Shown here: piece after piece, positions 7,905 to 31,900 of the stretch
How the letters are laid out: every line of letters begins with the position of its first letter
Numbering within the stretch: the first letter of the stretch is position 1
Source: a virus
Taxonomy: Duplodnaviria; Caudoviricetes
Reading direction: 5' to 3' (one strand)
Length of the DNA stretch: 58,120 nt
Virus record (IMG/VR): IMGVR_UViG_3300036978_000157
Span: 1-58,120 of that record
Position numbers and translations under genes: made by a program
Notes under the pieces: model-generated
Database searches by the model: none
What the model saw: only the letters and a program-made list of their open reading frames with translations
Told to the model about the DNA's origin: nothing

Positions 7905-7912
7905 TTCCAGAA

Positions 7913-7941
7913 AAAATAAACCAAGACTATTGACAAGTCAA
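7913..7941 (-). promoter_or_regulatory. Sigma70-like promoter for the XRE/HNH operon, overlapping the divergent promoter
   Basis: TTGACT, 17 bp, TATTTT on the minus strand; ATG at 7904. Confidence 0.5.
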
Positions 7942-7958
7942 CACTTTTTTGATACTAT
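7930..7958 (+). promoter_or_regulatory. Sigma70-like promoter
   Basis: TTGACA (7930-7935), 17 bp, TACTAT (7953-7958); ATG at 7967. Confidence 0.7.
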
Positions 7959-7966
7959 GATTGCTT

Positions 7967-8344: not shown

Positions 8345-8369
8345 TTATCGGAACCGATAAAAAAGATGC

Positions 8370-10736: not shown

Positions 10737-10930
10737 TGACAATCGACCAAGCATACGGAAAAGCGTTGAAGTATTTGGAGGCGGCAAACGCAATCTGGGA
10801 AGCTCAAGACAAGGAAAGGTATTGCATTGCAGAGAACTATCACAACGAAGGACTCAAGATAATGAACCAATACTTTTCTGAAACAAAAGTATTGACACAG
10901 ATACAAGATATTGATAGTATGCTCCCATGA
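10736..10930 (+). CDS. Hypothetical protein
   Basis: 64 aa, coupled to both neighbours. Confidence 0.6.
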   Translation: MTIDQAYGKALKYLEAANAIWEAQDKERYCIAENYHNEGLKIMNQYFSETKVLTQIQDIDSMLP

Positions 10931-12348: not shown

Positions 12349-12731
12349 GCAGACCAACACCAGAGACGGATGCGGTGTTTATTTGGGAACCTTTTTTAGA
12401 GGTAGATGTTAATAAAGCCCAAAAATTGTGCGAGAAATTAGAACGCGAGCGCGACGAGGCGCGGGAGAAAGCCGAACGATATCGGTTAGAGGCGAACGCA
12501 ATGATGATTCAACGCGATGAGTGGGCAGCGATGTGTGGCAGATACAAGCAAGAGCGCGACGAGGCGCAGGAGGCATTCAAGATAGCTTACAACGAGCGAG
12601 TCCAAATGGAACTTGAGCGTGACGAATGGAAAAACAAAGCATACTCCCATGCTACAGACTACACTCTAATGGAAGCGAAGTGCTTTAGATTAGAACAACA
12701 ACTCAAAGAATATGATCAACTCAAGAGCTAA
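12345..12731 (+). CDS. Coiled-coil ERERDEAR-repeat protein (paralog of 10927-11211)
   Basis: Shares an 81-bp near-identical segment with 10927-11211. Confidence 0.7.
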   Translation: MSRPTPETDAVFIWEPFLEVDVNKAQKLCEKLERERDEAREKAERYRLEANAMMIQRDEWAAMCGRYKQERDEAQEAFKIAYNERVQMELERDEWKNKAYSHATDYTLMEAKCFRLEQQLKEYDQLKS

Positions 12732-13041
12732 AGGAGCAAGAGGTGAGAGGCAGTGGAGAGATCAGCTTCGCGCCGAAGGCTACACTGCTAAACGAGGACA
12801 GCAATTCGCAGGAGGACAAGACTCACCAGATGTAGTCTGTGAAGAACTGAAGGGTAAACTCCACTTTGAAGTTAAGTGCGTTCAGAATTTGAATTTAGAT
12901 AAGGCTTGCGAACAGGCCGAGCGAGATGCTAAAGGCATTGCTTGGGCCGTGGCTCACAAAAAAAATAATAAGAACTGGAAGGTAACAATCCCTGCCGACA
13001 CGTTCTTTAAATTACTCAGGGATGGAATGGACGGATTATGA
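12712..13041 (+). CDS. Holliday junction resolvase (Hjc-like PD-(D/E)XK)
   Basis: NSRAKGARGER...SPD...EVK. Confidence 0.8.
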   Translation: MINSRAKGARGERQWRDQLRAEGYTAKRGQQFAGGQDSPDVVCEELKGKLHFEVKCVQNLNLDKACEQAERDAKGIAWAVAHKKNNKNWKVTIPADTFFKLLRDGMDGL

Positions 13042-13676: not shown

Positions 13677-14342
13677 ATGGAAAAGCGAGCGGGTGTATAT
13701 GAAATTGAAATTGCTGGCTATAAATACTATGGCAGCAGCATCAATATTTACGCCCGTAAGCAAAACCATATAACAAAACTACGATCTGGAAAACATCGCA
13801 ATCAACGACTGCAAAGATGTTTTGATAAATATGGAGAAGATGCTATGGCATTCAAGATACTTGTCCTTTGTGACGAAGAATCTGTTCTTGATGAAGAGCA
13901 AAAATATTTGGACGAGAATATCGGTAACGATAATTGTCTGAATTTTTGCAGAAGCGCATCTGCTCCAATGGCTGGAATTAAATTTTCAGATAATCATAAA
14001 AAGAAAATGTCAGAATCGCAGGTAAGAAATAAATACATTTTTTATTATGACTGTGGAAAAATAGAATCATTTGATAGTTTAAAACTTGCTGGTGATAAAT
14101 TCGGAGTCAGAAGCTCAATTGTTTCTCGATGGTTTAAAAGAAAAGACCTTGGAAGAAATCACGGAATACTGCAATCCAGCAATATTATAAAAGCTGAAAA
14201 AATCGGAGATGAACATATTGTTTTATTACCATATAAATACAAACAAAAACCTTGGCAAATAGCTGGAGCATCCAGTCATAGTCAATACTACAGAGAAAAA
14301 AGAAATGAAATCAAAACCCGCAACTGGCAAAGCGTCAGTTAA
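13677..14342 (+). CDS. Free-standing GIY-YIG homing endonuclease
   Basis: GVYEI...YYGSS...R...H...EQKYLD...N, NUMOD3-like FSDNHKKKMSES; AT-rich relative to neighbours. Confidence 0.85.
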   Translation: MEKRAGVYEIEIAGYKYYGSSINIYARKQNHITKLRSGKHRNQRLQRCFDKYGEDAMAFKILVLCDEESVLDEEQKYLDENIGNDNCLNFCRSASAPMAGIKFSDNHKKKMSESQVRNKYIFYYDCGKIESFDSLKLAGDKFGVRSSIVSRWFKRKDLGRNHGILQSSNIIKAEKIGDEHIVLLPYKYKQKPWQIAGASSHSQYYREKRNEIKTRNWQSVS

Positions 14343-14547: not shown

Positions 14548-14714
14548 AGATCAACGGCAAAAACACGGAAGCTAATGTTGATGCAGACGATGGCAGAGTT
14601 GGATGGAAGTATCCACTCAACTCCAAACAAATTGTAAGAGCCTGCGAAGACTTCTTCAAGAAGCGTGGAATGAAGCAATACGACTGCTGCGGCAGACCCA
14701 AGAAAACAGAATGA
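14544..14714 (+). CDS. Hypothetical protein
   Basis: ATGA-coupled on both sides. Confidence 0.55.
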   Translation: MKINGKNTEANVDADDGRVGWKYPLNSKQIVRACEDFFKKRGMKQYDCCGRPKKTE

Positions 14715-14965
14715 CTTGTCCAAAATGTGAATCACCTACTGAAGTCATCAATAGTAGAAAGAGAGATGGCACAGTAGTAAGGAGGAGGCTTTGTGCCTGT
14801 GGGGAAAGGTTTTCTACCAAAGAAGTAATTACTGCTTCAAGGAAAGTTACCTTCAATAAAGTAGTTAAGGCACTATCCATGACTAAAGCAGTCACTGGAG
14901 AGTGGACAGTAAAAGTAGATGAGAATACCCCAGAGTGGGCAAAGAAAATGCTAATTAACCTATGA
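14711..14965 (+). CDS. NrdR-like zinc-ribbon protein
   Basis: MTCPKC...TEVINSR...RRRLCACGERFSTKE. Confidence 0.75.
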   Translation: MTCPKCESPTEVINSRKRDGTVVRRRLCACGERFSTKEVITASRKVTFNKVVKALSMTKAVTGEWTVKVDENTPEWAKKMLINL

Positions 14966-16095
14966 GTATCGTTAACGATAAATTCACCTTCCATGTCCTT
15001 GGATTACCACACACAGTTTCTTCCAAAGAATTTAATGCCTGCGCTTATACCCAAAAAGTGGTGAAGTTCGGAAAGATGATGACCGAGCGTGGACACACAG
15101 TAATCCACTACGGCCATGAAGACTCTGATCTAATCTGCACAGAACACGTTCCAGTCCTAACTAACCATGACTTCAAGAAGAGTTACGGATCACATGACTG
15201 GCGTAAGACCTTCTTTAAATTCGATACTAACGACCATGCCTATCAAACCTTCTACAAGAATGCTATCAAGGAAATTGAGAAGAGAAAGAACAAGCATGAC
15301 TTTATTCTACCATTCTGGGGTAGTGGAGTTCGTCCTATTTGTGACGCGCATCCAGACCTAATCACAGTAGAACCCGGAATAGGATATGCGGGTGGACATT
15401 GGGCAAGGTGGAAAGTATGGGAATCCTACGCAATCTACCATGCCTACTGCGGACTGAAGAATGTAGGAAACTGCAACCAAGACTGGTATGATGTAATTAT
15501 CCCAAATTATTTCGATGTAGAAGACTTCGATTACAAAACAGACAAAGAAGATTACTTTCTCTACCTTGGGCGAGTATATAGCGGAAAAGGTGTAGATGTA
15601 GCTATCCAAGCCACTGAAAAAGCAGGCGTAAAATTGGTCATAGCAGGGCAAAAAGAGGAAGGTTACAAATTACCAAGTCACGTTGAGTATGTCGGATACG
15701 CTGATGTCCCGACCAGAAAGAAGCTCATGTCTAACGCTAAAGCCAGCTTCCTTCCATCTATGTATGTAGAACCATTCGGTGGCGTTCAGATAGAAAACCT
15801 ACTCTCTGGCACTCCAACTATAACTACAGACTGGGGCAGTTTCGCCGAGAACAACCTACACGGGGTTACAGGCTACCGATGCAGGACGATGGGAGACTTC
15901 GTAGATGCAGTCAAAAATATAGATCAAATCATGCCTTGGGACTGCAAACGATTCGGAATGAACTTCAGCCTAAAGAAGGTAGCACCAATGTATGAGAAAT
16001 ACTTCTCAGATGTCATGGATGTCTACACAGGAGATGGATGGTATTCCGAGGGAAATGGCATTAACGCAATGAAAAGAAGCTACCCTACACTATAA
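14962..16095 (+). CDS. Glycosyltransferase (GT-B fold, GT4-like)
   Basis: YLGRV..GKG and EPFGGVQIE (Ex7E) motifs. Confidence 0.85.
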   Translation: MSIVNDKFTFHVLGLPHTVSSKEFNACAYTQKVVKFGKMMTERGHTVIHYGHEDSDLICTEHVPVLTNHDFKKSYGSHDWRKTFFKFDTNDHAYQTFYKNAIKEIEKRKNKHDFILPFWGSGVRPICDAHPDLITVEPGIGYAGGHWARWKVWESYAIYHAYCGLKNVGNCNQDWYDVIIPNYFDVEDFDYKTDKEDYFLYLGRVYSGKGVDVAIQATEKAGVKLVIAGQKEEGYKLPSHVEYVGYADVPTRKKLMSNAKASFLPSMYVEPFGGVQIENLLSGTPTITTDWGSFAENNLHGVTGYRCRTMGDFVDAVKNIDQIMPWDCKRFGMNFSLKKVAPMYEKYFSDVMDVYTGDGWYSEGNGINAMKRSYPTL

Positions 16096-16102
16096 TAATC
16101 AC

Positions 16103-16420
16103 ATGAAAACACCAACAATACTAATAGCTGCATCGTTGTGCGCTTGCTCGCCAATGACTAAGGAAACATACACAGAAACCCGTCATTTCCATTATCCTAA
16201 AGGCGCGACACCGCATCTAAAGGAGATGTATATGCACAAGCCACCGACTGAACCAGTCATTCAACAACCAGTAATACCCCAAGAAGTAAATACTCATCCA
16301 GAAGACTATTCTTACATCGCGGAACTACCACAAGAACATAGGACGCTGGCGCAAGTTAGGGAAGAAAACGATCTTCTATCAGCACTGCGGGCAAACAAAA
16401 TCCTACGTCAAATGCAATGA
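16103..16420 (+). CDS. Putative lipoprotein
   Basis: MKTPTILIAASLCAC signal peptide / lipobox. Confidence 0.55.
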   Translation: MKTPTILIAASLCACSPMTKETYTETRHFHYPKGATPHLKEMYMHKPPTEPVIQQPVIPQEVNTHPEDYSYIAELPQEHRTLAQVREENDLLSALRANKILRQMQ

Positions 16421-16806
16421 ACTGGGACGAATACGGCATGAGTATAGCGGAGGTAGTTGCTAAGAAGAGCAAAGACCCGTGGAGGCAGGTAGGGGTAGTA
16501 ATACTCAGAGAAGACAACTCCATAGCCTCAGTAGGGTATAACGGATTCCCTCAAGGTGTAGAAGAAGACTGGTCATCAAGAGAAGAGAGGTCAAAGTTCG
16601 TAATTCACGCAGAACAGAATGCACTCAGATATACCAGTCCGGGCGAGGGAAAGATACTAATCTCAACTACCCTACCATGTAGGGACTGCCTAAAGGCCAT
16701 AGCCGCCTATAAGATAAAGAGAGTCCTCTATAAAGATGTTTACCACACTGATCCAATAGCCTTAGAAATAGCAGAAAAAATGGGAGTCACACTAACACAA
16801 ATATGA
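16417..16806 (+). CDS. dCMP deaminase
   Basis: SKDP..QVG, GYNG, HAE and PCRDC zinc motifs. Confidence 0.9.
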   Translation: MNWDEYGMSIAEVVAKKSKDPWRQVGVVILREDNSIASVGYNGFPQGVEEDWSSREERSKFVIHAEQNALRYTSPGEGKILISTTLPCRDCLKAIAAYKIKRVLYKDVYHTDPIALEIAEKMGVTLTQI

Positions 16807-17009
16807 ACGACGAGATCATAGCACTAACCATAGCATGGAGCATAGTAGTAGCCTGCTTCATAGTAGAGATACTAACTAAAGAATAATTTGAGAGCAATAA
16901 CGTGGTATTGTGGCGGGGGATAAACCTTGGCGGGTCTACCTCTGGTAAACAAGTAACCATTCCTGTAACCACATAAAACTGGAACTCTCATTATCGTTAA
17001 CGATAACCA

Positions 17010-17820: not shown

Positions 17821-17951
17821 GCCTCTGTCCTCCATAGAAAAAGAGATTCCTTCCATCGCTGCATGACGATAGAAGACTACGCAAGAATTAAATGCGATAT
17901 TCCATGACCAAAAAAATATCGGGCACGATAAAAAATAATCGCTCGAAACTA

Positions 17952-18967: not shown

Positions 18968-18998
18968 GGGTGACATCTTCGGGTGTCACCCTTTTTTT
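18968..18998 (+). terminator. Intrinsic terminator
   Basis: GGGTGACATC-TTCG-GGTGTCACCC followed by T7. Confidence 0.9.
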
Positions 18999-19029: not shown

Positions 19030-19629
19030 TCAGACTGCTTGCTCTTCCCCTTCTTCCACTTCCCCTTCGTTATCGTAAACGATAGCCTCTTCCACTTCGT
19101 TCTGTTCCCCTCTTCCCCCTTCTACATATTGCCCGGATATTACTTCCACCTCTTCCGCTTTCTGTGGCCCGGTCATGTGCAGGCTGATCATTGCATTCAC
19201 GCTCATTGCCCGTTTATCACCAATGTTTTGATCATCCAAGCCAAGCGTCCTTCTCGCCGTCTTATCTAATTCTGACAGCACTTCCAAGCGTTCCCGCTGC
19301 TCTTTAATGTTACCCATTTTCTTTCTGGCAACTATCTCGGCTCTCTCTTCACTCACCTGTTTAAGCATAAACCGCAGATGCTCTTCGGTTTGATCCTTCA
19401 TTGCCTCAATGATTGTCTTCTCAATCATGCCCGTGGATTGCACTCGGATGAGCTGTCTTTGCTTTGACCACTGCCCTTTGATCATGACATTCTTCACATA
19501 GAATCTGGAGAGTCCAATGAACTCTGGCATCTTTACTATGTCAGCGATTTCGTTCCCTTGGATGTATAAAGCTCTCACTTTATCCATGTCCCACTTCTTT
19601 CTCGCATCGACTTGCTTCTTTGCTTTCAT
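19030..19629 (-). CDS. Putative terminase small subunit
   Basis: N-terminal HTH (WDMDKVRALYIQG...W), central coiled coil, LDKTARRTLGLD, acidic tail. Confidence 0.6.
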   Translation of the reverse strand: MKAKKQVDARKKWDMDKVRALYIQGNEIADIVKMPEFIGLSRFYVKNVMIKGQWSKQRQLIRVQSTGMIEKTIIEAMKDQTEEHLRFMLKQVSEERAEIVARKKMGNIKEQRERLEVLSELDKTARRTLGLDDQNIGDKRAMSVNAMISLHMTGPQKAEEVEVISGQYVEGGRGEQNEVEEAIVYDNEGEVEEGEEQAV

Positions 19630-19706
19630 GGCCGAAAAGTAGATTATCGGTTACGATAAATCAATAAAATTATTTTGACTAAATGTGAAATAAATATATA
19701 AAACTA

Positions 19707-19735
19707 TTGACAAAGTGGGTGACTTGTGCTATACT
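19707..19735 (+). promoter_or_regulatory. Strong sigma70-like early promoter
   Basis: TTGACA, 17 bp, TGnTATACT, AT-rich UP element. Confidence 0.85.
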
Positions 19736-19743
19736 TATTGAAG

Positions 19744-19960
19744 GTCGGGGAAGAGTAGTCTTCTCACGACAATTGATCATTTAACATTTTAGGTTTTCAG
19801 TTTCGGTTTTTCGTGTGCCGTTGGCATTATCGTAAAAGATAATGTCAGCGGTGTAATGCAGCTTGGTTATCGTGTCCGATAATCATGTGCGAGCAATCTC
19901 GCCAGCGGTGACAAGCCCGTAAAGCATAACGCAAATGCAGAGTCATAACACACGAAACAA
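19744..19960 (+). promoter_or_regulatory. Structured early leader (hairpin, boxA-like sequence, multibranch structure holding two palindromes)
   Basis: TGATCATTTAACA 19774-19786; TTTCGTGTG pairs with CACACGAAA; 15-bp hairpin around 19827-19842. Confidence 0.55.
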
Positions 19961-20200
19961 ATGAAAATAACAAAACAGCATATAGTAAACAGGTTAGAAT
20001 ACCTATACAATGTGACAAGCATCCACTTTGATCTATCAATTCAATGTTCTGGTAGGTCGAAAGGATATTCCATCATGATCAATGGCTCTCATGTCATGAC
20101 ATATGGTCATGTTCCAATTGCAGTCCTTGATCAATGCATCACTGCCTTTGCAAAAGGATATAATAGAGGCGCGTGTGATTTTGCTCCTAAAGCATTATGA
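19961..20200 (+). CDS. Early hypothetical protein
   Basis: ATG after the ACACGAAAC motif. Confidence 0.7.
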   Translation: MKITKQHIVNRLEYLYNVTSIHFDLSIQCSGRSKGYSIMINGSHVMTYGHVPIAVLDQCITAFAKGYNRGACDFAPKAL

Positions 20201-20436
20201 CTACTAAAACTATCGTATCCGATAAAGGTAACAAGTATATCGTTCCTGTCGTTTCCGCCGAAGAGATGGAACAAATCATGTTCGGAATGGATTCGCCCGG
20301 ATGGTGTCTCACTTGTGGTGAGGAAGTCGATGGTGTTGAGCCAGACGCTTCCAAGTATCTTTGCGAATGCTGCGGTCAGCGCAAAGTATACGGCATGGAG
20401 CAACTGCTTATAATGGATTTACTTGTTATAAAATGA
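20197..20436 (+). CDS. Small zinc-ribbon protein
   Basis: GWCLTCG...VEPDA...CECCG. Confidence 0.75.
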   Translation: MTTKTIVSDKGNKYIVPVVSAEEMEQIMFGMDSPGWCLTCGEEVDGVEPDASKYLCECCGQRKVYGMEQLLIMDLLVIK

Positions 20437-20573
20437 ACTACCAAGTCTATTCAACGATCACAGTCTGCCTGCTCACTTCATTCAAAAGATATTGGGCATG
20501 GCGGCATGATCCATATTGGCGCAAAACCCTTCGCGATTATGTCGTAGCATTACGATATATCCGTTCCAAGTAA
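20433..20573 (+). CDS. Small hypothetical protein
   Basis: ATGA-coupled; stop abuts leader element E1. Confidence 0.5.
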   Translation: MNYQVYSTITVCLLTSFKRYWAWRHDPYWRKTLRDYVVALRYIRSK

Positions 20574-20650
20574 TTAGCCACTCTGTTCTGTTATCGTTTA
20601 CGATAGCAGGACAGCAGGCTGACTACAACCAGTCGGCAAAAACACGAAAC
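20574..20650 (+). promoter_or_regulatory. Repeated two-hairpin leader element E1
   Basis: TTAGCC-ACT-stem(palindrome)-CA-GGCTGA, second hairpin, ACACGAAAC. Confidence 0.7.
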
Positions 20651-20653
20651 CAA

Positions 20654-21331
20654 ATGTATATTATACATGAAACCAATGACATTGTAGTAATCGCTACAAG
20701 AAACAGCAAGAACCGCAAGACAGGCAGCAGCGTTCAGATTTGGATTATGGATGCGCGTATGCATCCTACCGAGTCACGCAAAGGCCCGGACGCAGACAAT
20801 CAATGCAATGGCTGTGAGTTTGCATCCAAGCAGGGATGTTATGTGAATGACAATCCTCTCGGTGCAATCTGGCGAGCGTATCAGCGCGGCTCATATGAAT
20901 ATCTTTATATGGGAACACGCGAATGGTATGACTTCTTCTCTGTGCCTTATGTCCGTTTCGGTGCGTATGGTAATCCTTCTCACATTCCATTGGAGATGGT
21001 CTACGATATCGCCAAACTTTCCAAGCGTATCACAGGCTACTTCCATGACTGGCACACTATGCCAGCACCACTTGCCAAAGCGTATGGTAGATACTTTATG
21101 GCTTCTACCAATACAAGCAATGTGGAGTATGCCAAGAACCTCGGCTTGCGGACATTCACAGTCACAAACGAACCTCTCGTTAACGATATCGAATGTCTTG
21201 CAGATGCCAAGGGTCTGTCTTGTTCAGAGTGTGGATTGTGTGATGGTAACTATCGCCGCTCTTCCCTCCCATCTGTGTGGATCAATCCTCATGGATATCA
21301 AGTGCGTAAAGCGGTGGAGGCTATAGCATGA
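20654..21331 (+). CDS. Cys-rich phage protein (gene-product-88 / radical-SAM-like)
   Basis: NRKTG, CNGC...CYV, RFGAYGNP, TGYFH.W, CSECGLC. Confidence 0.6.
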   Translation: MYIIHETNDIVVIATRNSKNRKTGSSVQIWIMDARMHPTESRKGPDADNQCNGCEFASKQGCYVNDNPLGAIWRAYQRGSYEYLYMGTREWYDFFSVPYVRFGAYGNPSHIPLEMVYDIAKLSKRITGYFHDWHTMPAPLAKAYGRYFMASTNTSNVEYAKNLGLRTFTVTNEPLVNDIECLADAKGLSCSECGLCDGNYRRSSLPSVWINPHGYQVRKAVEAIA

Positions 21332-21392
21332 GTGTAAGAAAGTTACTTATCCTTATCATGCTCTTCCAAGTAGTAGTAGCCATTGCAATCCT

Positions 21393-21557
21393 ATGCTCGA
21401 AATAACAAAGCTCAAAGCAAAGAAGCTCTTCGATGCGATTCCTATCAAGCAAATCGGCGTTGTCCGCGCCACCACTCCCAAGAAAAAACCTGTCACCATC
21501 ATAACAAAGAAAGACAAGCAAGTCCTTCGCGTATGTGACGGCAAGTATTGGGCGTAG
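21393..21557 (+). CDS. Small basic protein (not in the ORF track)
   Basis: MLEITKLKAKK...; stop abuts element E2. Confidence 0.45.
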   Translation: MLEITKLKAKKLFDAIPIKQIGVVRATTPKKKPVTIITKKDKQVLRVCDGKYWA

Positions 21558-21632
21558 TCAGACACTCTGGTGTTATCGGAAACGATAATGCCAGCAGTCT
21601 GCTTACATGGTGTAAGTAGAAAAACACGAAAC
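21558..21632 (+). promoter_or_regulatory. Repeated two-hairpin leader element E2
   Basis: CAGAC-ACT-CTGG...CCAG-CA-GTCTG; TCTGCTTACA/TGTAAGTAGA; ACACGAAAC. Confidence 0.75.
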
Positions 21633-21635
21633 AAA

Positions 21636-22016
21636 ATGAACACATACTATACAAAACATCCAGTCAACGACATCTATACTCCTGCTACAATTAGCTCGGA
21701 AGATGCAATCGCAATCCTCATCCAGTCGGCAGTCACCAATGCAGTTAACAAGGTAAATGACATCATCATCAATGCTGTCATCGCCCGTGTTAACGATGCG
21801 GTCAGTGATGCTAATATCCAAAACAAAGTAGAAGCACATTTATCTACAATGGATATTGGAGTTATAGTTGAAGAAGCCGCTTCAAATGCCGCCCGTGATT
21901 ACGATTACGATAGTGCAATCGAGAATGCGTTAGATGGTGTAGACATCGATGAGATGGTTACAGAGAAGATCACCGATCACTTAGACTCTTGTTCCATTCA
22001 AGTCCGTATCAACTAA
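21636..22016 (+). CDS. Acidic early protein
   Basis: D/E-rich helical repeats; ATG after ACACGAAAC. Confidence 0.7.
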   Translation: MNTYYTKHPVNDIYTPATISSEDAIAILIQSAVTNAVNKVNDIIINAVIARVNDAVSDANIQNKVEAHLSTMDIGVIVEEAASNAARDYDYDSAIENALDGVDIDEMVTEKITDHLDSCSIQVRIN

Positions 22017-22089
22017 TCAGACACGCTGCTCATCCGCGAGGGTGGGCAGTAGTCTGGTTATCGTTTCCGATAATCAGTAAACACGAAAC
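22017..22089 (+). promoter_or_regulatory. Repeated two-hairpin leader element E3
   Basis: CAGAC-AC-stem(GCGA loop)-A-GTCTG; the second hairpin is the palindrome; ACACGAAAC. Confidence 0.75.
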
Positions 22090-22103
22090 AACAAACTAAT
22101 AAT

Positions 22104-22523
22104 ATGAAAAGAGAACAATACTTAGAATCAAGAGTATATGATGAACATGAGTATATCGAAGTAGAAGAAGCTACTATCGAGATGCTCAATGAAACATACA
22201 GCTTCAAGTCGTTAGGTGGCCCGTTCACCTATATGTCCGCTGGTGATGTTCTGAAAGAATATGACCATGCTGCCTTCCGCGAGACAGTAAATAACTATCA
22301 GGATTCAATGATCCGCGATGGTAACTGGATCGAGTATGACGATGCCTGCTGGTTTCCACCAGTTCAAGAGTTCATCGACAACATCAAAGAAGCTATCAAG
22401 GATGTTGACCCCTTCCATGTGGATGAAGGTGAACATCGTGGTTGGTATTACTATGATGACATGGCTATGTGGTTAGGCCCGTTCAACTCACCAGAAGATT
22501 GTTACAATCACGCTTGCCCATGA
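22104..22523 (+). CDS. Acidic early protein (possible DNA mimic)
   Basis: Strong D/E excess, aromatic-rich. Confidence 0.7.
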   Translation: MKREQYLESRVYDEHEYIEVEEATIEMLNETYSFKSLGGPFTYMSAGDVLKEYDHAAFRETVNNYQDSMIRDGNWIEYDDACWFPPVQEFIDNIKEAIKDVDPFHVDEGEHRGWYYYDDMAMWLGPFNSPEDCYNHACP

Positions 22524-22732
22524 ACAAAGTATTATTCAACGAAGGCAAACAAGGTTTTGCTCTTCATGGTATAACATCCCCAAAGTTCACAGGCAAATGC
22601 TCCGCTTGGTTTTGGAGCAATGGTAAGATGCATGGGTGCGAGTGGATCCGCCGCGATGGTCAGTCGCGTCTAATCCCTATGTTCACTCCAATGTATAGAT
22701 ACTTGGAATCGCTCGGCCCGATTTGGAAGTAA
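22520..22732 (+). CDS. Hypothetical protein
   Basis: ATGA-coupled; stop abuts element E4. Confidence 0.6.
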   Translation: MNKVLFNEGKQGFALHGITSPKFTGKCSAWFWSNGKMHGCEWIRRDGQSRLIPMFTPMYRYLESLGPIWK

Positions 22733-22807
22733 CCAGACACTCTCCTCATTATCGTTCACGATAGTGGGGAGCAGTCTGGTAGCATGGTGCTACTGGAAAA
22801 CCAAAAC
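22733..22807 (+). promoter_or_regulatory. Repeated two-hairpin leader element E4
   Basis: CCAGAC-ACT-stem(palindrome)-CA-GTCTGG; GTAGCA-TGG-TGCTAC; AAAACCAAAAC. Confidence 0.75.
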
Positions 22808-22814
22808 TAATAAC

Positions 22815-22970
22815 ATGACAACAAATACATTAATACGAAAACTAATAAATCTTGCTGGCGAAGCAATACATCTTGCTGACCAATACGCAGGAGGTCAGTC
22901 TGAAACTGTAACTGAACTATCTAATCAATTAAATGAATTGATGGAACACGCAGCAGAGGAAAATGAGTGA
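22815..22970 (+). CDS. Small hypothetical protein
   Basis: ATG after E4. Confidence 0.55.
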   Translation: MTTNTLIRKLINLAGEAIHLADQYAGGQSETVTELSNQLNELMEHAAEENE

Positions 22971-23203
22971 GAACACATAACCTATACAAACAGAAACCTA
23001 TGTATACTATAATCGAACCACAAGAGTTTGAGCTTTATGCTCTTCTCCGACTCAAGTCAGCACTTAAATTAGAAGTTGCTGGCATGAAGCACAGCAGAGG
23101 ATCAGTCTACGCCAAGGTCAAGAAAGACTTTGGTTTCAAAGGAAACAAAGAGTCCGTTCTTAATCAACTCATCAACCACATCAGCAACAAATACAACCAA
23201 TGA
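22967..23203 (+). CDS. Hypothetical protein
   Basis: LKSALKLEVAGMKHSRGSVYA; coupled ORF. Confidence 0.65.
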   Translation: MRTHNLYKQKPMYTIIEPQEFELYALLRLKSALKLEVAGMKHSRGSVYAKVKKDFGFKGNKESVLNQLINHISNKYNQ

Positions 23204-23430
23204 AAAACACAAAACAAAAACCAATTGGCGATGAAATCATGGAACAAATCCATATGACTGGCACAACCTTCACTATTAAAATGGTTGAAGATTGCGAAGG
23301 TCAACCAACTGTTATCCTTAAAGATAACGATTGTGGTGACATGACAATCATCCAAACAATCGCCAATGAAATCAAGGTGACTCATCTTGATAACGACGAA
23401 ATCGAAGCAATTAAAGATGTTCTTCTATGA
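23200..23430 (+). CDS. Hypothetical protein
   Basis: ATGA-coupled. Confidence 0.6.
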   Translation: MKNTKQKPIGDEIMEQIHMTGTTFTIKMVEDCEGQPTVILKDNDCGDMTIIQTIANEIKVTHLDNDEIEAIKDVLL

Positions 23431-23567
23431 GTGCTACAGAAAAAAACCAACCAACCTGCCTACCACCAGAGGCATACATCCGCATCATTCGCCACTGCGA
23501 AAACAATGTTCCGAAGTTCCGCTCTTCGGTCTATCCTAAACCGCAACCTGTTAAGTCTAAAAAATGA
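23427..23567 (+). CDS. Small hypothetical protein (not in the ORF track)
   Basis: ATGA overlaps at both ends. Confidence 0.45.
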   Translation: MSATEKNQPTCLPPEAYIRIIRHCENNVPKFRSSVYPKPQPVKSKK

Positions 23568-25198
23568 ACATTCAAGCATTACTCGATACAGTTGAGTTCT
23601 CTCAACCCATGTCCACTACAACCAAGCGTGGCCCTCGTCTTCTTCGGAAGGCGAGCGTCACCTCGGAGTTCTGGAATTTATACAGGGCAGATAAGGATGA
23701 CTACAAACAAGTCATGGGTGACCTTGGCTTCCAACTCTCCAAGTTCAGAGAGGAGTGGGAACTTGCTTGGTGGTCGAGGGCCGACTTATCGTTTCCGACA
23801 ATACCTTCCTCCTCACCAGAGAAGGTTGAGCCAGAGGTTAAATATGACCTTCCTCCACTCATCTATCCCGAAAAGTTGTTTGAGTATCAACTAACTTCAG
23901 TTCAACTCGCACTTCGTTCCATGTCTAAATACAATCGTGCATTGCTTGGACATGGCACTGGCATGGGCAAGACTGCTATTGCCCTTGCTGTAGCCCGTGA
24001 ACGTGGCAGGCGCGTTGCTGTCATCTGCCCCAAACCCATCACCACCGACTGGCATAGGCTTGCCAAATACCTCGGCGTTGAAACCTACGAAGTTTGTGGG
24101 TGGGAATGGGTCAAGACCGGCAAGAGTAAGATTGGTAGGTGGACAGATGATAAGAAGAAGGAATTCCAATTCATGCTGCCTCCAGATACCGATCTTATAT
24201 TCGATGAGGTTCACCGCGCCAAGGCTCAAGGCAATACACAGAATGCCTTCCTGCTCCGCGATGCTGTAGTCCAGAATGTGCCAACAATAGCATTATCGGC
24301 TACGATAGCTGATGATCCTACAAAGATGTGGGCAATCGGCCAGTTCCTCGGACTCCATCAAGGTGGTAAGGACTTCTTCCGCTTCCTCAACGCCAATGGA
24401 TGCTACAATACCAACTTCGGTATGCAGTTCAAGGGTAACAACAAAATACTCAAGAACCTTCATGGCCGTATCTTTCCAGATCGTGGCAATCGTCTCAAAC
24501 CATCTGATGTTGGTAGTGCCTTTCCAGAGACACTCATCCAAGCCAGAGCGTTTGATATGGATACTGCCCGTGATATCGCCAAGGAATACGATGAACTACT
24601 TATGAGGGTAGAGCAGATCAAGATGCAGGAGAATGCCGCTTCATCGATGGGTGCAGTCCTTGCTGAGATGACCCGCGCCCGTCAGAAGATCGAACTCTTC
24701 AAAGCACCAGCAGTCTGTGCTATGGTCAAGGATTTGATCGAGGAAGGTAACTCGGTCTTTATTGCAGTCAACTTCACCGAGACTCTCAAGTTCATGGAAG
24801 AAGAACTCAAGACTACCTGCTCCATTCGCGGTGGTCAGAGTGATATGGTTAGGAGAGGTAACATCGACTCATTCCAGAATGACAAGTCCAGAGTTATAAT
24901 CGGCATCATCCAAGCCTGTCGAGAAGGTCTGAACCTGCACGATCTAAACGGCAAATACTCAAGGGTTGCCCTCATCATGCCGACCTACTCAGTCTTCGAT
25001 CTCAAGCAGGTATTGGGTCGAGTCCATCGAGCAGGAGGTAAGTCTAAGTCCATTCAGTATCTCATCTACGCCGCTGGTGTAGACATCGAGGAGTCAGTAT
25101 GCAGTTCGCTGGATGCTAAACTCAAGCGCATGGATACCCTCATGGATGGTGAGGTGGATGGGACGATATCAGTAGCACCGAAAGAAGTGAATGCCTAA
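23564..25198 (+). CDS. Superfamily 2 (SNF2-like) helicase
   Basis: GTGMGKT, DEVH, LSAT, EGLNL, QVLGRVHR. Confidence 0.9.
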   Translation: MNIQALLDTVEFSQPMSTTTKRGPRLLRKASVTSEFWNLYRADKDDYKQVMGDLGFQLSKFREEWELAWWSRADLSFPTIPSSSPEKVEPEVKYDLPPLIYPEKLFEYQLTSVQLALRSMSKYNRALLGHGTGMGKTAIALAVARERGRRVAVICPKPITTDWHRLAKYLGVETYEVCGWEWVKTGKSKIGRWTDDKKKEFQFMLPPDTDLIFDEVHRAKAQGNTQNAFLLRDAVVQNVPTIALSATIADDPTKMWAIGQFLGLHQGGKDFFRFLNANGCYNTNFGMQFKGNNKILKNLHGRIFPDRGNRLKPSDVGSAFPETLIQARAFDMDTARDIAKEYDELLMRVEQIKMQENAASSMGAVLAEMTRARQKIELFKAPAVCAMVKDLIEEGNSVFIAVNFTETLKFMEEELKTTCSIRGGQSDMVRRGNIDSFQNDKSRVIIGIIQACREGLNLHDLNGKYSRVALIMPTYSVFDLKQVLGRVHRAGGKSKSIQYLIYAAGVDIEESVCSSLDAKLKRMDTLMDGEVDGTISVAPKEVNA

Positions 25199-25207
25199 AA
25201 AACAAAT

Positions 25208-25242
25208 AGCCCACAGGGAATAAAATCCTTGTGGGCTTTTTT
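25208..25242 (+). terminator. Intrinsic terminator (possibly bidirectional) between convergent operons
   Basis: AGCCCACAGGGA/TCCTTGTGGGCT followed by a T-run. Confidence 0.85.
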
Positions 25243-25262
25243 GTTGTTATCGTTTCCGATAT

Positions 25263-25550
25263 TTACGGAGTAAACAGAAGTGGTTGGTTATCCTTCTCCT
25301 TCTCTGGTTCATCGAAGCGTTTGCGGAACTGAGCATTCTGATAATACATGAATGCAAGTTCCAGATACTTGATACACTCAAACCCTTCACCCTTGCGGGA
25401 TTCTGATTTGATGACCATCATGCTTGCTGTATGCAACAGGCTTGCCATTGCATGGACTCGTTCGTTTAGTGTCTCGTCGCCGCTCTTAATGAAGGTAAAC
25501 GCTTCAAGGACAGCTTTCGAGGTTTCGTTTTGTTGTGTTGGTTCTGACAT
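25263..25550 (-). CDS. Hypothetical protein
   Basis: 95 aa, last gene of the minus-strand operon. Confidence 0.65.
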   Translation of the reverse strand: MSEPTQQNETSKAVLEAFTFIKSGDETLNERVHAMASLLHTASMMVIKSESRKGEGFECIKYLELAFMYYQNAQFRKRFDEPEKEKDNQPLLFTP

Positions 25551-26820: not shown

Positions 26821-27636
26821 TCAATATGGAATCTCGTCTGCTTCCTCTTCAATAGGAGCATCGAGGTTGAAGTCTATTGCTGCTTGCTCTACGCACTTAG
26901 CGAATGGAGTTGTGAACCCCTTCTCCAAGTAGAATTGGTAGAGTTTGGTTAGGTCTTTCTTGCCAATCTCGGCGAGCTTCTCACCCTTGTGTGATCCACT
27001 TGGGACGATAGCAGATGCCCAATCTTTAGGATCGAGTTCTGCTGGTTCCTCCGCTTTAGGTTGAGACTTTGGTTCTGACTTACCAATGGAGATACCTTTG
27101 CGGTTAGCTTCGATGAAGACCGACGAGACATACGCCCGAAGAGTCTCTTCATCTGTGACTTTGCCGAGATAGGCCATGCGAACCAAGGAGTCGATGTAAA
27201 GGTGGGTCTCTACGATCTTATCCAACTCCTGCTCTGGATTATCGGAAACGATACTCTTGGGTGTTGATGCTACACGGGGCGGCTCCTCGTTTTGATTTTG
27301 GAACTCCACTTTACCCGTGGCAGTTACCTTGATGATGTCACGATCCACTTTCCCGTTCTTACCATCGTAGGTTTCATGCTCAAGTGATACACCCGTTAGT
27401 CCATGCTTACCTCGGACTGAAGAAAGCGTAACTACATTTCCTTTCAATGATTGCTCTTGATTATTGTTGAAGAACTTGAGTCCGTAGGTTTGCCCGTCGA
27501 TCTCAATGTCTCCACCTTGGATCACGAACTCACCTTTCGGGCCGTTGAATGTCTTCGGTTCCCACAATTTAGTGACCTTGCCAGTCACTCGCTTGATGAT
27601 GTCTTTCTGTTCGATTCCTTCTAATTGGTTACTCAT
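26821..27636 (-). CDS. Putative ssDNA-binding protein (OB fold)
   Basis: VTGKVTKLWEPKTF N-terminus, acidic-aromatic tail EEEADEIPY. Confidence 0.65.
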   Translation of the reverse strand: MSNQLEGIEQKDIIKRVTGKVTKLWEPKTFNGPKGEFVIQGGDIEIDGQTYGLKFFNNNQEQSLKGNVVTLSSVRGKHGLTGVSLEHETYDGKNGKVDRDIIKVTATGKVEFQNQNEEPPRVASTPKSIVSDNPEQELDKIVETHLYIDSLVRMAYLGKVTDEETLRAYVSSVFIEANRKGISIGKSEPKSQPKAEEPAELDPKDWASAIVPSGSHKGEKLAEIGKKDLTKLYQFYLEKGFTTPFAKCVEQAAIDFNLDAPIEEEADEIPY

Positions 27637-28784: not shown

Positions 28785-28832
28785 TAGATTTTTATTATTT
28801 TTATGAAAATAATTTTATCGGTAACGATAATA

Positions 28833-28865
28833 GAAAACGCACCCCAGATTTCTCCGAGGTGCGTC
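28833..28865 (-). terminator. Terminator of the virion operon
   Basis: ACGCACCTCGGA-GAAA-TCTGGGGTGCGT-TTTC on the minus strand. Confidence 0.75.
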
Positions 28866-28919
28866 CCCTAATGAATAACACGAAACAGCAACAAGCTGCG
28901 GAGGTAGATTACATCAGCC

Positions 28920-31900
28920 TCACTCAATGTCAAGAGGGATTTCCAACCTATCTTGCAGGTCTTCTTTCACCTCTCTACGGATGATACGAATCTCTGTGCT
29001 GAGTAGGTCTTGAGCTTCATCAAGTGGTAGCTCATCCAAGTCATCTGATATCTCAACAATCTTATCCCGCATCATTGGCCCTGCTTCTCGGACGAACTGC
29101 AACTCCTGCTCCTTGGTCATCCTTTTCCCATTGTCCCATGAAAGGCTTGAATCCCATGCTGGAGGTGTAAGGTTGTTCCTATACATAATCTCCCATGCAG
29201 GGTCTGGCTTCTCAGTAGAAACGATACGGCCAAACACGCTTGCCAAACGCTTTCCAAATCCTTCCTCTTGTATAGCAGATGGGAACTTGGCATCTTCACC
29301 AAAGTAGTTCACATCCTTGTTCAAGAAGTTAACTGAGCCGGGCATATCCTTGAAGAAGTTTGAAAGGTAATCTCCACCTACTGCTTTGTCTTCGGTGTAA
29401 AGTTTGTTGATGTCGCGGAATGCGCCCGGAACTAACATACGGGATATGATTCCTCCGACAAACTGAGTTCCCTTCTCAACTGGATTCTGAGATTCTTTGA
29501 ACTCCAGCAAGTCGGCAAGACCAGTAAGGAATGATTGGTTCAGAACGGCAACGAATCCAATGGAGAATGGTGCTGTGATTGCGGAAGCCGCAAGTTTACC
29601 GATGTCTTCTGCTTGAAGTTTCTCACCCTTCTTCCTCATTGATTTTATTTCCTCTTGCAACATAGCTCCACTTGCCAACGGAATAACAAGGGGAGTGTAG
29701 AGGTATGAGAAGTATGTATCCCCAACTCTGACCGAATACTTCTGACCTCCACGCTGCTGCCAGATTTTCTTTTGGCGCGGGTCTTTCGGCCCTTCGGCAT
29801 AGAACTGTATGTATGGACGCTTCTCTTGATCCTCTTCATCTCCACCAGTGAGTGCTTGGATAATGAATGGAACCATCGCAAGTATACCGAGTATACCCTT
29901 CATTTGTATTTCATATTCCTTATCTGCTCGACCTTGCGTGAATGGGTCTTTCATCCCGCTCTTCTTCGCTCTAATTAATCTGTATTGAGAAAAGATTGGA
30001 GTGTAGTTCAGAAACTCATTGGTCACATTCGCCACAACATTCGTGAATGGGATTACGAACTTAGTTGCTGGATACTTTGCAAGAAGTCCGTTTACGAAGT
30101 TGGCAAGCATTCCGAATAACCCTTGTGGGTCTTGGTTGAACGCCGTCTCAAGTGATGCTTGTTCAGCTATAGCTCTCTGCTCTTCATCAGCCAACCTTTG
30201 CTCACGATAGATTTCGTTTGCTCGGATTATAATCTCTTGGTCTTTCTGTTTACCTGTAGCTTGGGATGATGCAAGTTCCAGTTCGGCTTGCCTCTTCGCC
30301 ATGTCAAACCCTTCTCTGGTATATGCTGCCGCGCCAAGCTGTGCTGCCTTAGCCTCGTATGCTACCTCTCGCAAGAACATATCAGTTGCTCGGAGTAGTC
30401 GCATCAACTGCCTTGGGTTCACATTCTTCAATGCTGTATTCATCCAATCGGGGAGGAAGTTAATCTTCCCGTCACCGAAGTTCGTAAGGTAGTAAACAAT
30501 CTTGGGAGTGTTATCTGGAGTAGCCCCCTCAAGAACATTGGTCTTGGGATACTTTGCCCTCTTCTCGTCCTGCATACCAGATGGGTTTAACCCATTACGC
30601 ATGACATAGAGGAATGAATTCACCGCCGCTGATTGCTTGCCAGATACAGCAGAATACAAAGCCCTCATCATTGGGAAGAATGATTTAGGATTATACATTG
30701 ACCATACTGCCACATTGGAAATGAGATTGCTTGCACCAGACAAGGCGTTAATAGCCGAGGTGGATGCCTGTGAGATGAGTGCAAAATACCAGTAGCTTGA
30801 TAGAACATCTCCAGTAGTGAACTTGGATTTGTTCATCAACGCCCGACCCATCTTCTCTTCCTCGATGCTACGGATCACACCCGCTGGTAGCTTGGATATC
30901 CTGTCTCCCCACTCGCGGAGTGTATTTGTGAACTCAGCATCGTATGGCATGAAACCTTTAGGGAAGTCATGTGTTTTACGGAATGCCTCGTATACTCCTT
31001 CAGCATCCAACACACCCATGTTTGCCATCTCAACCAACTTCTGGAGGATGGTGCGCTGGTTGGAGGTTGGTTTGATCTTGTTATCTGCTAATATCTTTTG
31101 AGCTTTCTTGATGGCACTATCAACAATTTGACTTCTTTCAGCCAAAATTATTTTGGTCATTTGCTTGGATAGTATATCGGCTAACTCTGTAGCCTGCTCT
31201 TTATCCATTCCAACCTCAGTGATGATCCTGCTGATCAGTCCATCCTTGAAGTTACCTTCGTCGCTCGTTGAGAGTCTTGTAATATCTTTGAGGTTCTTGA
31301 TTGCTTTGAATTGTGCTTCAGCTTCCTCTTGGATTTTCTGTGAGAGAAGTGGTTTAGGTATGACCTTGCCTGTCTTCTCATCGATACGGAATCCAAGTTT
31401 GTCTTTTAGAACTTTGTTCGTTTCTTCGTTCAGATACTTGTCTGTGTCTTGGATGAACTTCTCGATCAGTTCGTTTGATGCGCCAGTTCCTTGAAGCTCA
31501 GTGCGGATGTGCTGCTTGACTGCTTCTTGGTTTACATTCCTCTGTGATCCAAGGTAGGTGAATAGATCAGCAAACTTGTAGTTCAAGAACTCTGCTGAGT
31601 CTTTGATTGCTTGTTCTCTTAGGCTATCTGCCCATTGATTTGAGCGGAGTGCCTTAAAGAGTTCTGCGTAGTCGGCGTTGAAGGCATCCCGACTCTGATA
31701 CTTCTCTGCCATTCGGTTTGCCAAATCGTTCACGAAGGATTTGTAAGCATTATCGTTTCCGATAACTGCCTTCACCATCTCCAAATATTTACCACTACGC
31801 TTACCTTTCTTCTGCTTTTCAATGCCAGCCTGCTGGATACCCAACTGCTTCGCGGCAGTAGCAAAGGATTGATACATGAACTTGCTGACATTATCGATGG

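Follow-up and report, generated by a model that had tools for sequence, protein, structure and literature searches.

A covarying two-hairpin element repeated between the early genes of an uncultured phage as a candidate intercistronic RNA module

The virus record IMGVR_UViG_3300036978_000157 of IMG/VR (Duplodnaviria; Caudoviricetes), 58,120 bases long and analysed here over its whole length (hereafter the window), carries four copies of a two-hairpin element, E1 to E4, between consecutive genes of one + strand operon. Compensatory changes conserve the structure of the element, which is a property of the sense strand; the copies lie between cistrons and bound gains and losses of gene cassettes. 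Our preferred, though tentative, reading is that E1-E4 constitute a cis-acting intercistronic RNA module, acting as a processing and stability signal and as a recombination linker, in a polycistronic early operon driven by a sigma-70 promoter.

Results

Four elements share one architecture

The four elements lie where the original prediction, made from the sequence alone, had placed them. Each starts 0-2 nucleotides (nt) past an in-frame stop codon (TAA 20571-3 for E1, TAG 21555-7 for E2, TAA 22014-6 for E3 and TAA 22730-2 for E4) and runs from the stop of the preceding open reading frame (ORF) to the next ATG. A covariance model of their first hairpin (hairpin 1) was built from the four window copies and four orthologues, and its scores are given below with the coordinates of each element. 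In E1 (20571-20653, + strand, 68.8 bits; ATG at 20654), the outer stem TTAGCC/GGCTGA pairs 20574-20579 with 20617-20622, and an internal loop (ACT 20580-2 facing CA 20615-6) separates it from an inner stem (20583-20596 with 20601-20614) that is capped by a palindrome at 20591-20606. Hairpin 2 (20619-20636) then reuses the CTG of the outer stem (20619-21), and an AC-rich tail with AAACACGAAAC at 20640-20650 leads to the start codon. E2 (21555-21635, + strand, 64.7 bits; ATG at 21636) repeats this plan with an outer stem at 21559-21563 and 21597-21601, a loop of ACT 21564-6 facing CA 21595-6, an inner stem at 21567-21578 and 21583-21594 capped by the palindrome 21573-21588, and a hairpin 2 (21599-21619) that reuses CTG 21599-21601 ahead of AAACACGAAAC at 21622-21632. 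The same parts are found in E4 (22730-22814, + strand, 68.1 bits; ATG at 22815): outer stem 22733-22738 with 22774-22779, loop ACT 22739-41 facing CA 22772-3, inner stem 22742-22754 with 22759-22771, palindrome cap 22749-22764, and hairpin 2 at 22776-22796 reusing CTG 22776-8 and followed by a degenerate AC-rich tail. E3 (22014-22103, + strand, 47.4 bits; ATG at 22104) is built differently at the tip. Its outer stem (22018-22022 with 22052-22056) is followed by an AC bulge (22023-4, facing A 22051) and by an inner stem (22025-22035 with 22040-22050) closed by a GCGA loop, and it is hairpin 2 (22054-22077, reusing CTG 22054-6) that consists of an extended palindrome (22058-22073) before AAACACGAAAC at 22079-22089.

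The anatomy originally described is borne out by the sequence as regards the outer stem (CAGAC/GTCTG in E2-E4, replaced in E1), the variable inner stem with its G-U pairs, the exchanged place of the palindrome in E3, and AAACACGAAAC, which is exact at 20640-50, 21622-32 and 22079-89 and degenerate in E4. Only the conservation of the internal loop has to be relaxed: ACT/CA (AC/A in E3) is present in the window, but it is not strictly conserved and some relatives have an AC bulge only. The helix as a whole comprises 5-6 bp and 12-14 bp around a 3x2 or 2x1 loop.

Compared with shuffled sequences, the elements fold with z-scores of -6.59 (E1), -5.87 (E2), -5.56 (E3) and -5.69 (E4), and none of the 200 shuffles of each was equally stable. 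The pattern CAGACAC-N20-45-CAGTCTG has two matches against 0.01 expected. With filters off, the covariance model finds exactly four full-length hits in the 58,120 bases, each on the + strand and scoring 47-69 bits; below them rank E1, E2 and E4 read in reverse (20-23 bits), and then come partial hits to the palindrome only, at 18 bits or less. A comparison with Rfam, which the original prediction had proposed together with a covariance-model search of viromes, matched no family: the whole window gave no match at gathering thresholds, and a search of 19600-25300 at E up to 1 gave two sub-threshold hits only, both at 25166-25248 and none in E1-E4. We regard the element as a candidate RNA family absent from Rfam.

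The fold covaries among relatives and belongs to the sense strand

For the virome search, IMG/VR loci were fetched around the conserved gene downstream of E1, and 45 sources (697,792 bases) were searched, consisting of the window, loci L085-L101 and 27 of 80 loci flanking terminase genes. The model yielded 70 hits at E <= 1e-4, 69 of them + strand copies and one the reverse of a copy. All are contained in 16 of the 45 sources, namely the window and 15 IMG/VR loci (L085-L099), and the element was not found in L100, L101 or the 27 terminase-flank loci searched. A pattern scan of IMG/VR for wider occurrence returned 18 stretches; L107 among them holds two divergent copies, the match in L110 (a 147-kb contig) was rejected as due to chance, and L104 was not confirmed by the model.

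The covariation first noticed among the window copies holds in these relatives. In an alignment of 43 distinct rows, fitted to the covariance model and hence favouring the structure, standard pairs occupy 98.4% of cells, as against 88.7% in shuffles and 22-51% in slid controls. Change on both sides was observed in 8 of 17 pairs (53 cells), and not one of 500 shuffles reached the observed covariation score. Clear compensatory change affects the outer stem (AU to CG in 8 rows) as well as five of six inner-stem pairs. The placement is shared too, 56 of 61 distinct copies starting with TAA, TAG or TGA. The claim of one common architecture is upheld. Because the loop (4 or 5 nt) and the stems change in length, a coding reading of the ORFs that nominally cross E1 and E2 is ruled out.

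Cells of the 42 distinct + strand rows hold 579 Watson-Crick pairs, 81 G-U pairs and 3 A-C oppositions, and in all 42 distinct copies the + strand fold is more stable than the - strand fold (means of -28.4 and -20.2 kcal/mol). The excess of G-U over A-C and the greater stability of the + strand argue that the folded species is the sense strand. Of the RNA-level function originally claimed, sense-strand-specific folding therefore stands and RNA is its natural reading, but folded single-stranded DNA fits equally well.

Two hairpins share three nucleotides

The reuse of the outer-stem CTG by hairpin 2 is general among relatives. Hairpin 2 is an uninterrupted helix of 6-10 pairs, counted from the C of the outer-stem CUG, in 48 of 51 distinct versions, and the other three have one internal mismatch and keep CUG:CAG. 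Its stem occurs in 21 different forms, the triplet opposite CUG being always Y-R-G (CAG 20, CGG 15, TAG 8, TGG 8), and a hairpin 2 of at least 6 pairs is obtained in 1.8% of shuffles. We also compared the fold in which the outer stem is forced with the fold in which CUG pairs downstream. The difference does not exceed 3 kcal/mol in 56 of 60 distinct elements (range -3.1 to +5.0, mean 1.1 kcal/mol in favour of the second fold), in agreement with the proposal that the two folds, through their shared CUG, partly exclude each other. The AC-rich leader is unpaired in both.

Elements bound cassette gains and losses

The segment 18-26 kb of the window was compared by blastn with 14 non-identical relatives, and end-points of homology were taken from segments of at least 150 nt. 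Elements (+/- 5 nt) contain 32 of the 96 end-points, against 7.2% expected. Array maps of 12 genomes show a conserved backbone and optional cassettes of one or two genes, which almost always come with one extra element, the number of elements ranging from 3 to 6 per genome. Junctions are scattered over the palindrome, the joint between hairpins 1 and 2 and the ACACGAAAC tail (20591, 20653-6, 21634-51, 22079-98), and one type of hairpin 1 is paired with differing types of hairpin 2 and with differing neighbour genes. The scatter of junctions and the reassortment of hairpins point to homologous recombination between copies and not to a site-specific cut. Among the four roles proposed at the outset (RNase III processing sites, put-like antiterminators, translational switches and anchors for cassette exchange), the last is the only one to have gained direct comparative support.

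A further observation was made in one relative, where two elements lie about 40 nt apart (L090:3443-3590) with a 3-codon remnant (ATG AAC ATA TAG) between them. The remnant matches the first 10 nt (ATGAACATAT) of the full gene that lies between the same two elements in L088 and is, by this match, a cassette nearly wholly deleted in place.

The palindrome is also a genome-wide site

The palindrome had been described as a local cap. It does cap hairpins, a copy being present on hairpin 1 or as hairpin 2 in 60 of 61 distinct elements (the exception is L095:7536), but it is also a sequence-specific site found throughout the genome. With at most one mismatch, TTATCG-N4-CGATAA occurs 33 times in the window, that is, at 32 unique sites, where 0.13 are expected, and the unique 54.2 kb hold 31 copies of the exact core TATCG-N4-CGATA. 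Across 1.07 Mb of related loci the half-sites of the core are spaced by N4 510 times, by N5 56 times and by each other distance at most 6 times, and everted or direct arrangements of the half-sites show no comparable peak. Variants with N5 spacers are found both inside and outside elements. Since the surplus of 6-N4-6 inverted repeats is fully explained by the palindrome (16 of 33, against a chance expectation of 13.6), selection acts on its sequence and not on hairpins generally. The spacer follows a strand-symmetric rule (K..M, the first base G or T and the last A or C), loop sequences have no significant bias relative to the sense strand (15 versus 9, by hand count), and within elements the arms do not covary whereas the adjoining stem does. 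As RNA, the bare 16-mer has a computed stability of -3.2 to -4.6 kcal/mol.

About 12 sites are inside genes, the others lying between genes or where genes start. Of the bare palindromes, six end 3-13 nt ahead of an ATG, four or five sites lie 9-47 nt upstream of a sigma-70-like -35 box, and 11 of the 32 are within the 5.6-kb early operon. The copy inside the large terminase gene (6739-6754) has all 12 arm positions invariant in 64 distinct relatives, with a single spacer position varying (GAAA or GTAA), and conservation at third codon positions is 0.97 inside it and 0.72 in its flanks.

The palindrome is most likely the recognition site of a predicted sequence-specific factor that would bind duplex DNA as a dimer; given the N5 variants, a protein reading the hairpin is possible. 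A candidate binder is an XRE-type helix-turn-helix (HTH) protein, although the divergent region around its gene (7599-7958) is devoid of the palindrome. This gene (7599-7904, - strand) adjoins back-to-back near-consensus promoters (7941-7913 on the - strand and 7930-7958 on the + strand) in a Cro/CI-like layout.

The operon is bracketed by one promoter and one terminator

A single strong promoter and a single terminator bracket the operon, which we infer to be early, with the four elements in between. The promoter (19707-19735, + strand) is of the sigma-70 type, TTGACA-17-TATACT with a TG extension, and with 11 of 12 consensus positions it outranks all other sites in 16.5-29.5 kb; immediately upstream there is a second one, of the TTGACT type. 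The intrinsic terminator (25208-25237, + strand) has a 12-bp stem followed by TTTTTTG. No conserved promoter was found inside the elements, the single weak match (9/12, 20633-20662) overlapping the ATG of the gene downstream of E1 and E2-E4 having none. Nor is there a U-tract after the element hairpins: an A/C-rich tail follows, and E1-E4 show no terminator-like site, in contrast to the terminators of the genome that carry a U-tract (25208-25237, 18968-18991 and 28870-28831).

The start motif ACACGAAAC stands ahead of five early ATGs, all on the + strand (19949 with 1 mismatch, 20641, 21623, 22080 and the degenerate copy of E4), at a distance of 0 to about 25 nt. It has no Shine-Dalgarno core and is composed of A and C save for one G. 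The first of these copies belongs to the 5' leader of the operon (19742-19960, + strand), which folds with a minimum free energy of -79 kcal/mol (z -6.26). Within this leader, an anti-leader stretch (19801-19818, + strand) is complementary to the start-region motif CACACGAAAC at 19949-19958, and two palindrome hairpins (19827-19842 and 19867-19882, + strand) lie within the leader helix and resemble hairpins 1 and 2. When 19742-19975 was folded, a long-range helix was predicted between 19801-19818 and the start region of the first gene (19946-19958). The anti-leader is present, with at most 1 mismatch, in 7 of 15 relatives (L085-L090 and L095), and in L092 and L093 the two strands differ from the window in a complementary manner, ...GUGG with CCAC... 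replacing ...GUGU with ACAC.... The predicted helix could shield the first early gene from translation.

A perfect 10-nt complement of the start motif AACACGAAAC is also found at 28877-28886, in the - strand 3' untranslated region of a gene for a 2612-amino-acid (2612-aa) protein, just ahead of its terminator. The surrounding stretch (28831-28899, - strand) has a small-RNA-like layout, with a small hairpin, a single-stranded stretch and a strong U-tract terminator. We considered a trans-acting antisense RNA and rejected it, as in 56 related loci the stretch varies (GTTTCATGTT, TATTCGTGTT, CATTCGTGTT or absent) and the start motif shows no matching change. The complement is probably a coincidence.

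A model for the elements and its rivals

Taken as an intercistronic RNA module, the element would have three parts. The first is a long hairpin right after the upstream stop, with an outer stem of 5-6 bp, a small loop or bulge, a covarying inner stem of 12-14 bp and, usually, the sequence-specific palindrome TTATCG-N4/5-CGATAA at its tip. The second is a hairpin whose base is built from the CUG of the outer stem, and the third an unstructured AC-rich leader (AAACACGAAAC) reaching the next ATG. The module would hence provide a 3' hairpin for the upstream cistron, and a 5' hairpin with an AC-rich leader for the downstream one. The interrupted helix of about 20 bp may be a processing and stability signal like those of the T7 early region. 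In this scheme a double-strand-specific RNase would cut near the 3' side of the internal loop or of the outer stem, so that hairpin 1 would become the protective 3' end of the upstream message. The cut would also free the CUG, and hairpin 2 would then adopt its extended form at the 5' end newly acquired by the downstream message; beside it would lie an accessible landing site for ribosomes, in a genome where Shine-Dalgarno sequences are mostly missing. The homology that the modules repeat would turn them into hot spots of homologous recombination, and the palindrome would link them to about 31 genome-wide sites read by a putative factor, most likely a dimeric DNA-binding protein.

Several of our observations weigh against this proposal. 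Processing is deduced from anatomy and from what is known of T7, and the strand specificity would suit folded single-stranded DNA no less than RNA. The CUG is invariant, and the extended hairpin 2 is backed solely by wobble-compatible variation, with no pair in which both partners change; the ACU:AGU pairing that favours the second conformer is disrupted in 8, 1 and 10 of the 43 rows, without any compensating change. For these two reasons the term 'bistable' may overstate the case. Pairing involves the AC-rich leader in neither fold, and hence no direct influence on translation is expected, which also makes the translational switch of the original prediction a weak candidate. The break-points counted in relatives lack phylogenetic independence, and further ones gather at ordinary gene boundaries (22968, 23203, 23427 and 23563), so that the elements are one class of mosaic boundary and not the sole one.

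Two other explanations concern translational control and DNA binding. The elements could be start-associated translational control elements like the ESAS of mycobacteriophages, in which a phage or host factor, or an antisense RNA, recognises the inverted repeat and ACACGAAAC and thereby, without any processing, determines how some of the early genes are translated in a genome largely lacking Shine-Dalgarno sequences. The motif ahead of five early ATGs, the complementary stretch of the operon leader predicted to mask the first start, the complementary difference between the two leader stretches in L092 and L093, the six bare palindromes 3-13 nt ahead of ATGs elsewhere and the agreement in layout with the Cluster K SAS/ESAS (PMC3203893) all speak for it. 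We nevertheless consider it unlikely, given that the motif stands at a variable distance from the ATG (0 to about 25 nt) and contains no Shine-Dalgarno core, that the leader is unpaired in both conformers, and that the 10-nt complement at 28877-28886 fails to persist among close relatives and shows no covariation with the motif. Alternatively, the function could be purely one of DNA. The elements would then be operators for a palindrome-reading dimeric factor, crowded in the early operon for shut-off by roadblock or repression, and the surrounding complementarity would be a by-product. The properties of the palindrome agree with this: 31 exact cores in 54.2 kb and only 0.13 full 16-base matches expected even with 1 mismatch allowed, the fixed spacing (N4 510 times, N5 56 times, others at most 6 times) and the strand-symmetric K..M spacer, the arms of the terminase site that do not vary even at synonymous positions, and loops without significant sense-strand bias (15 versus 9). 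So do its positions, with 11 of 32 sites in the 5.6-kb early operon and four or five sigma-70-like promoters preceded by a site 9-47 nt upstream of the -35 box, and so do the XRE-type HTH protein encoded at 7599-7904 (- strand) and the close precedent offered by the dyad repeats of Cluster O (PMC4351075). Operators alone leave unexplained, however, the covarying outer and inner stems, the 81 G-U against 3 A-C cells, the second hairpin, the placement after stop codons and the one element without any palindrome (L095:7536), and the tolerance of N5 spacers also argues against them. We therefore find this explanation distinctly improbable.

The remaining two explanations assign the fold to other processes, and both seem to us very improbable. 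Folded single-strand DNA recombination sites, comparable to the attC sites of integrons and mobilising early cassettes site-specifically, would account for the position at cassette boundaries and for a strand-specific fold with outer stem, unpaired spacer, inner stem and variable tip. Yet among the roughly 50 ORFs scanned with PHROGs and/or Pfam there is no tyrosine recombinase or integron integrase, and junctions are scattered across the element without converging on a single nucleotide; the order of core-like boxes in the elements seems not to match the attC consensus either. Two adjacent stable hairpins in a transcribed, leader-like position could suggest transcription signals, whether terminators or attenuators that separate cassettes or put-type processive antiterminators as in HK022. 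Neither hairpin is followed by a U-tract, in contrast to the real terminators of the genome, and no Rfam family is matched even at E up to 1. The put-like antiterminators of the original prediction are disfavoured by the presence of 3-6 copies per operon, one between most cistrons, with no terminators in between to be read through.

The intercistronic RNA module can be extended to a bolder picture, to which we give little credence. The early operon would be a self-organising array in which each cassette brings its own 5' hairpin, leader and 3' hairpin, the CUG joint would be both the point of RNA cleavage and the preferred point of DNA crossover, and one palindrome-reading factor, acting on hairpin tips and on about 27 other sites, would couple the expression or shut-off of cassettes to the phage programme. 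If true, the array would be a phage-borne analogue of the integron that needs no integrase and fuses a bistable RNA element with a genome-wide operator.

Palindrome copies outside the elements

The other palindromes are distributed along the window as follows, those with 1 mismatch being indicated. Copies close to start codons are found at 4580-4595, 13 nt upstream of the ATG of the gene 2080-4566 (- strand); at 16991-17006, ending 3 nt ahead of ATG 17010; at 40657-40672, ending 5 nt ahead of ATG 40651 (- strand); at 46635-46650 (1 mismatch), ending 4 nt ahead of ATG 46630 (- strand); at 49459-49474, ending 6 nt ahead of ATG 49452 (- strand) of a tail-fibre-like gene; and at 52021-52036, ending 6 nt ahead of a - strand ATG. 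That these bare palindromes act as leaderless promoters was considered and dropped, the spacing from the -10-like CGATAA(T) to the ATG being inconsistent. Copies associated with promoters or terminators lie at 8345-8360, 1 nt past a stop codon and 9 nt upstream of the -35 box of a TTGACA-17-TAGTTT promoter; at 17916-17931 (1 mismatch), 20 nt upstream of the -35 box of a TTGACG-17-TAGTCT promoter; at 19644-19659, just upstream of the early promoters; at 25247-25262 (1 mismatch), 10 nt past the early terminator; and at 28815-28830, between a - strand terminator and a - strand TTGACG-16-TAGTAT promoter, a copy kept in place in most of 56 related loci. The copy at 406-421 is intergenic and recurs at 54616-54631 in the overlapping end of the window.

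Within genes, and in addition to the terminase site, palindromes occupy 9912-9927 (DnaB-like helicase gene), 13918-13933 (homing-endonuclease-like gene, 1 mismatch), 14966-14981 (codons 2-6 of a glycosyltransferase gene, 1 mismatch), 19070-19085 (an ORF, 1 mismatch), 20210-20225 (codons 5-10 of the gene 20197-20436, 1 mismatch), 23786-23801 and 24293-24308 (helicase gene, 1 mismatch each), 27239-27254 (gene 26821-27636 on the - strand, 1 mismatch), 43424-43439 (gene 43192-43965 on the - strand, 1 mismatch) and 49849-49864 (gene 49713-51746 on the - strand, 1 mismatch). Three more copies (31750-31765, 35998-36013 and, with 1 mismatch, 32873-32888) are inside the gene for the 2612-aa protein (28920-36758, - strand). 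This protein has no Pfam or PHROG match, and the idea that the palindromes are hairpin promoters for a virion RNA polymerase was dropped. According to language-model features, its nearest named clusters are viral polyvalent proteins (LPD-domain) with scores of 0.83-0.94, a weak indication with a recognition value below threshold.

The source phage and its clade

The ends of the record overlap, positions 1-3913 matching 54211-58120 with 98.0% identity (76 mismatches, 1 gap), and the unique genome therefore amounts to about 54.2 kb. Its G+C content is about 45%. Both ends represent the same region, yet they are inexact as a terminal repeat; they could reflect an assembly that wrapped around across two close variants, or a real, imperfect long terminal repeat. 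Some 50 window ORFs were scanned against PHROGs and/or Pfam, and the majority had no match. Recognisable genes encode the large terminase, a DnaB-like helicase, a replication initiator or loader, an exonuclease, a second helicase, a tail-fibre-like protein, a GT1 glycosyltransferase, a dCMP deaminase and the XRE-type HTH protein. Domain matches in small genes include an NrdR-like zinc ribbon (14603-14965), a dCMP/cytidine deaminase (16417-16806) and a PDDEXK/Hjc-like nuclease (12712-13041), the last scoring under the curated cut-off of Pfam. No tRNA genes were found in the genome.

Among 50,697 deposited phage records, tblastn found nothing that matches the terminase, nor does 20000-23500 have a megablast match in the phage collection, and the terminase matches 279 stretches in IMG/VR. 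Judged by these searches, the phage is a member of an uncultured clade that recurs across many metagenome records of IMG/VR. Intergenic regions hold near-consensus sigma-70 promoters (TTGACA-16/17-TAnnnT) and canonical U-tract terminators, from which we infer a bacterial host and dependence on its RNA polymerase. Most genes lack a Shine-Dalgarno sequence, and a few promoters are close enough to an ATG for a leaderless mRNA to be predicted; at 10892-10929 and 7930-7969, the -10 element ends about 6-8 nt short of the ATG, suggesting leaderless mRNAs. Leaderless-type promoters, TAnnnT -10 boxes and scarce Shine-Dalgarno sequences hint, speculatively, at a host of actinobacterial type. The sole relative of the terminase in a genome collection (93% identical) lies on a near-complete, 51,842-base contig (L120) binned with a metagenome-assembled genome of Candidatus Woesearchaeota. 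Since the promoters, terminators and replication genes of the window are bacterial in type, this contig is probably a mis-binned phage.

Discussion

Repeated intergenic hairpins are commonly noted in phages and seldom explained, and the present family is well suited for an explanation. Its covariation is strong and its strand clear, the joint of its hairpins has two defined states, its position relative to stop and start codons is fixed, and comparison between genomes documents how cassettes were gained and lost. It also overlaps a palindrome that recurs across the genome and that purifying selection maintains even at synonymous positions. It thereby offers testable models of how a phage using the host RNA polymerase, and mostly lacking Shine-Dalgarno sequences, may punctuate and stabilise a polycistronic early message, of how the same spacers may drive the modular exchange of small genes without known function, and of the purpose of dyad repeats in actinophage-like genomes.

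The closest analogues of the element are the RNase III sites of T7, the promoter-early stem-loops (PeSLs) of T4-type phages and the ESAS of mycobacteriophages. The RNase III signals of the T7 early region are a repeated set of irregular hairpins that resemble one another, each about 20 bp long and broken by an internal loop. They stand between cistrons, and the hairpin stays as the 3' end of the upstream message. E1-E4 resemble them in being intercistronic within what would be an early polycistronic transcript of the host polymerase, and in having a helix of about two turns that is interrupted by an internal loop and conserved by covariation. Unlike the T7 signals, they add a second hairpin sharing three nucleotides, a palindrome at the tip and a conserved AC-rich leader to the start codon, and their cleavage is putative. 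The phages are also unrelated, as the terminase finds no match among deposited phage records, and no sequence relation of the elements is known.

PeSLs are small repeated intergenic cassettes made of a strong sigma-70-like promoter and a terminator stem-loop, and recombination between copies yields insertions, deletions and replacements among related phages (PMC2839356, PMC4122927). Our elements are likewise repeated intergenic cassettes that bound indels and replacements in a region rich in small genes without known function. They are not PeSLs themselves, having neither a conserved promoter nor a terminator U-tract.

The SAS of Cluster K is a short conserved repeat at start sites with a Shine-Dalgarno-like GGAGG core; in about half of the cases an imperfect inverted repeat with a variable spacer lies just upstream, and the function is not established (PMC3203893). 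With these sequences the elements share the position of ACACGAAAC, which likewise directly precedes the start codons of some genes and always in the same orientation, and hairpins 1 and 2 can be likened to the upstream inverted repeats, a similarity of layout only. In contrast to SAS, the element motif lacks the ribosome-binding core GGGATAGGAGCCC and the sequences are unrelated; ESAS is not known to covary as RNA or to bound cassette indels.

For the bare palindrome, the Cluster O mycobacteriophages offer a parallel in 34 copies of a 17-bp dyad repeat, one third of them inside genes, for which a dimeric binder is predicted (PMC4351075). Both repeats have about 30 copies with invariant arms and a variable centre, located in genes, between genes and near gene 5' ends with no orientation bias. 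They differ in format (7-N3-7, TGTTCGG-N3-CCGAACA, in Cluster O and 6-N4-6, TTATCG-N4-CGATAA, here) and in context: the Cluster O repeats are reported to take part in rearrangements only rarely, whereas here four to six copies per genome sit in covarying hairpins at cassette boundaries.

The attC sites of integrons are imperfect palindromes at cassette boundaries whose strand-specific fold combines outer stem, unpaired spacer and variable tip. The elements share these features with them and differ in that their junctions are not at a fixed position; no integrase was found among the ORFs scanned. As judged from these comparisons, the element belongs to the known repeated intergenic hairpin cassettes of phages, among which it is unusual in the quality of its covariation, in the joint of shared nucleotides and in its fusion with a genome-wide site.

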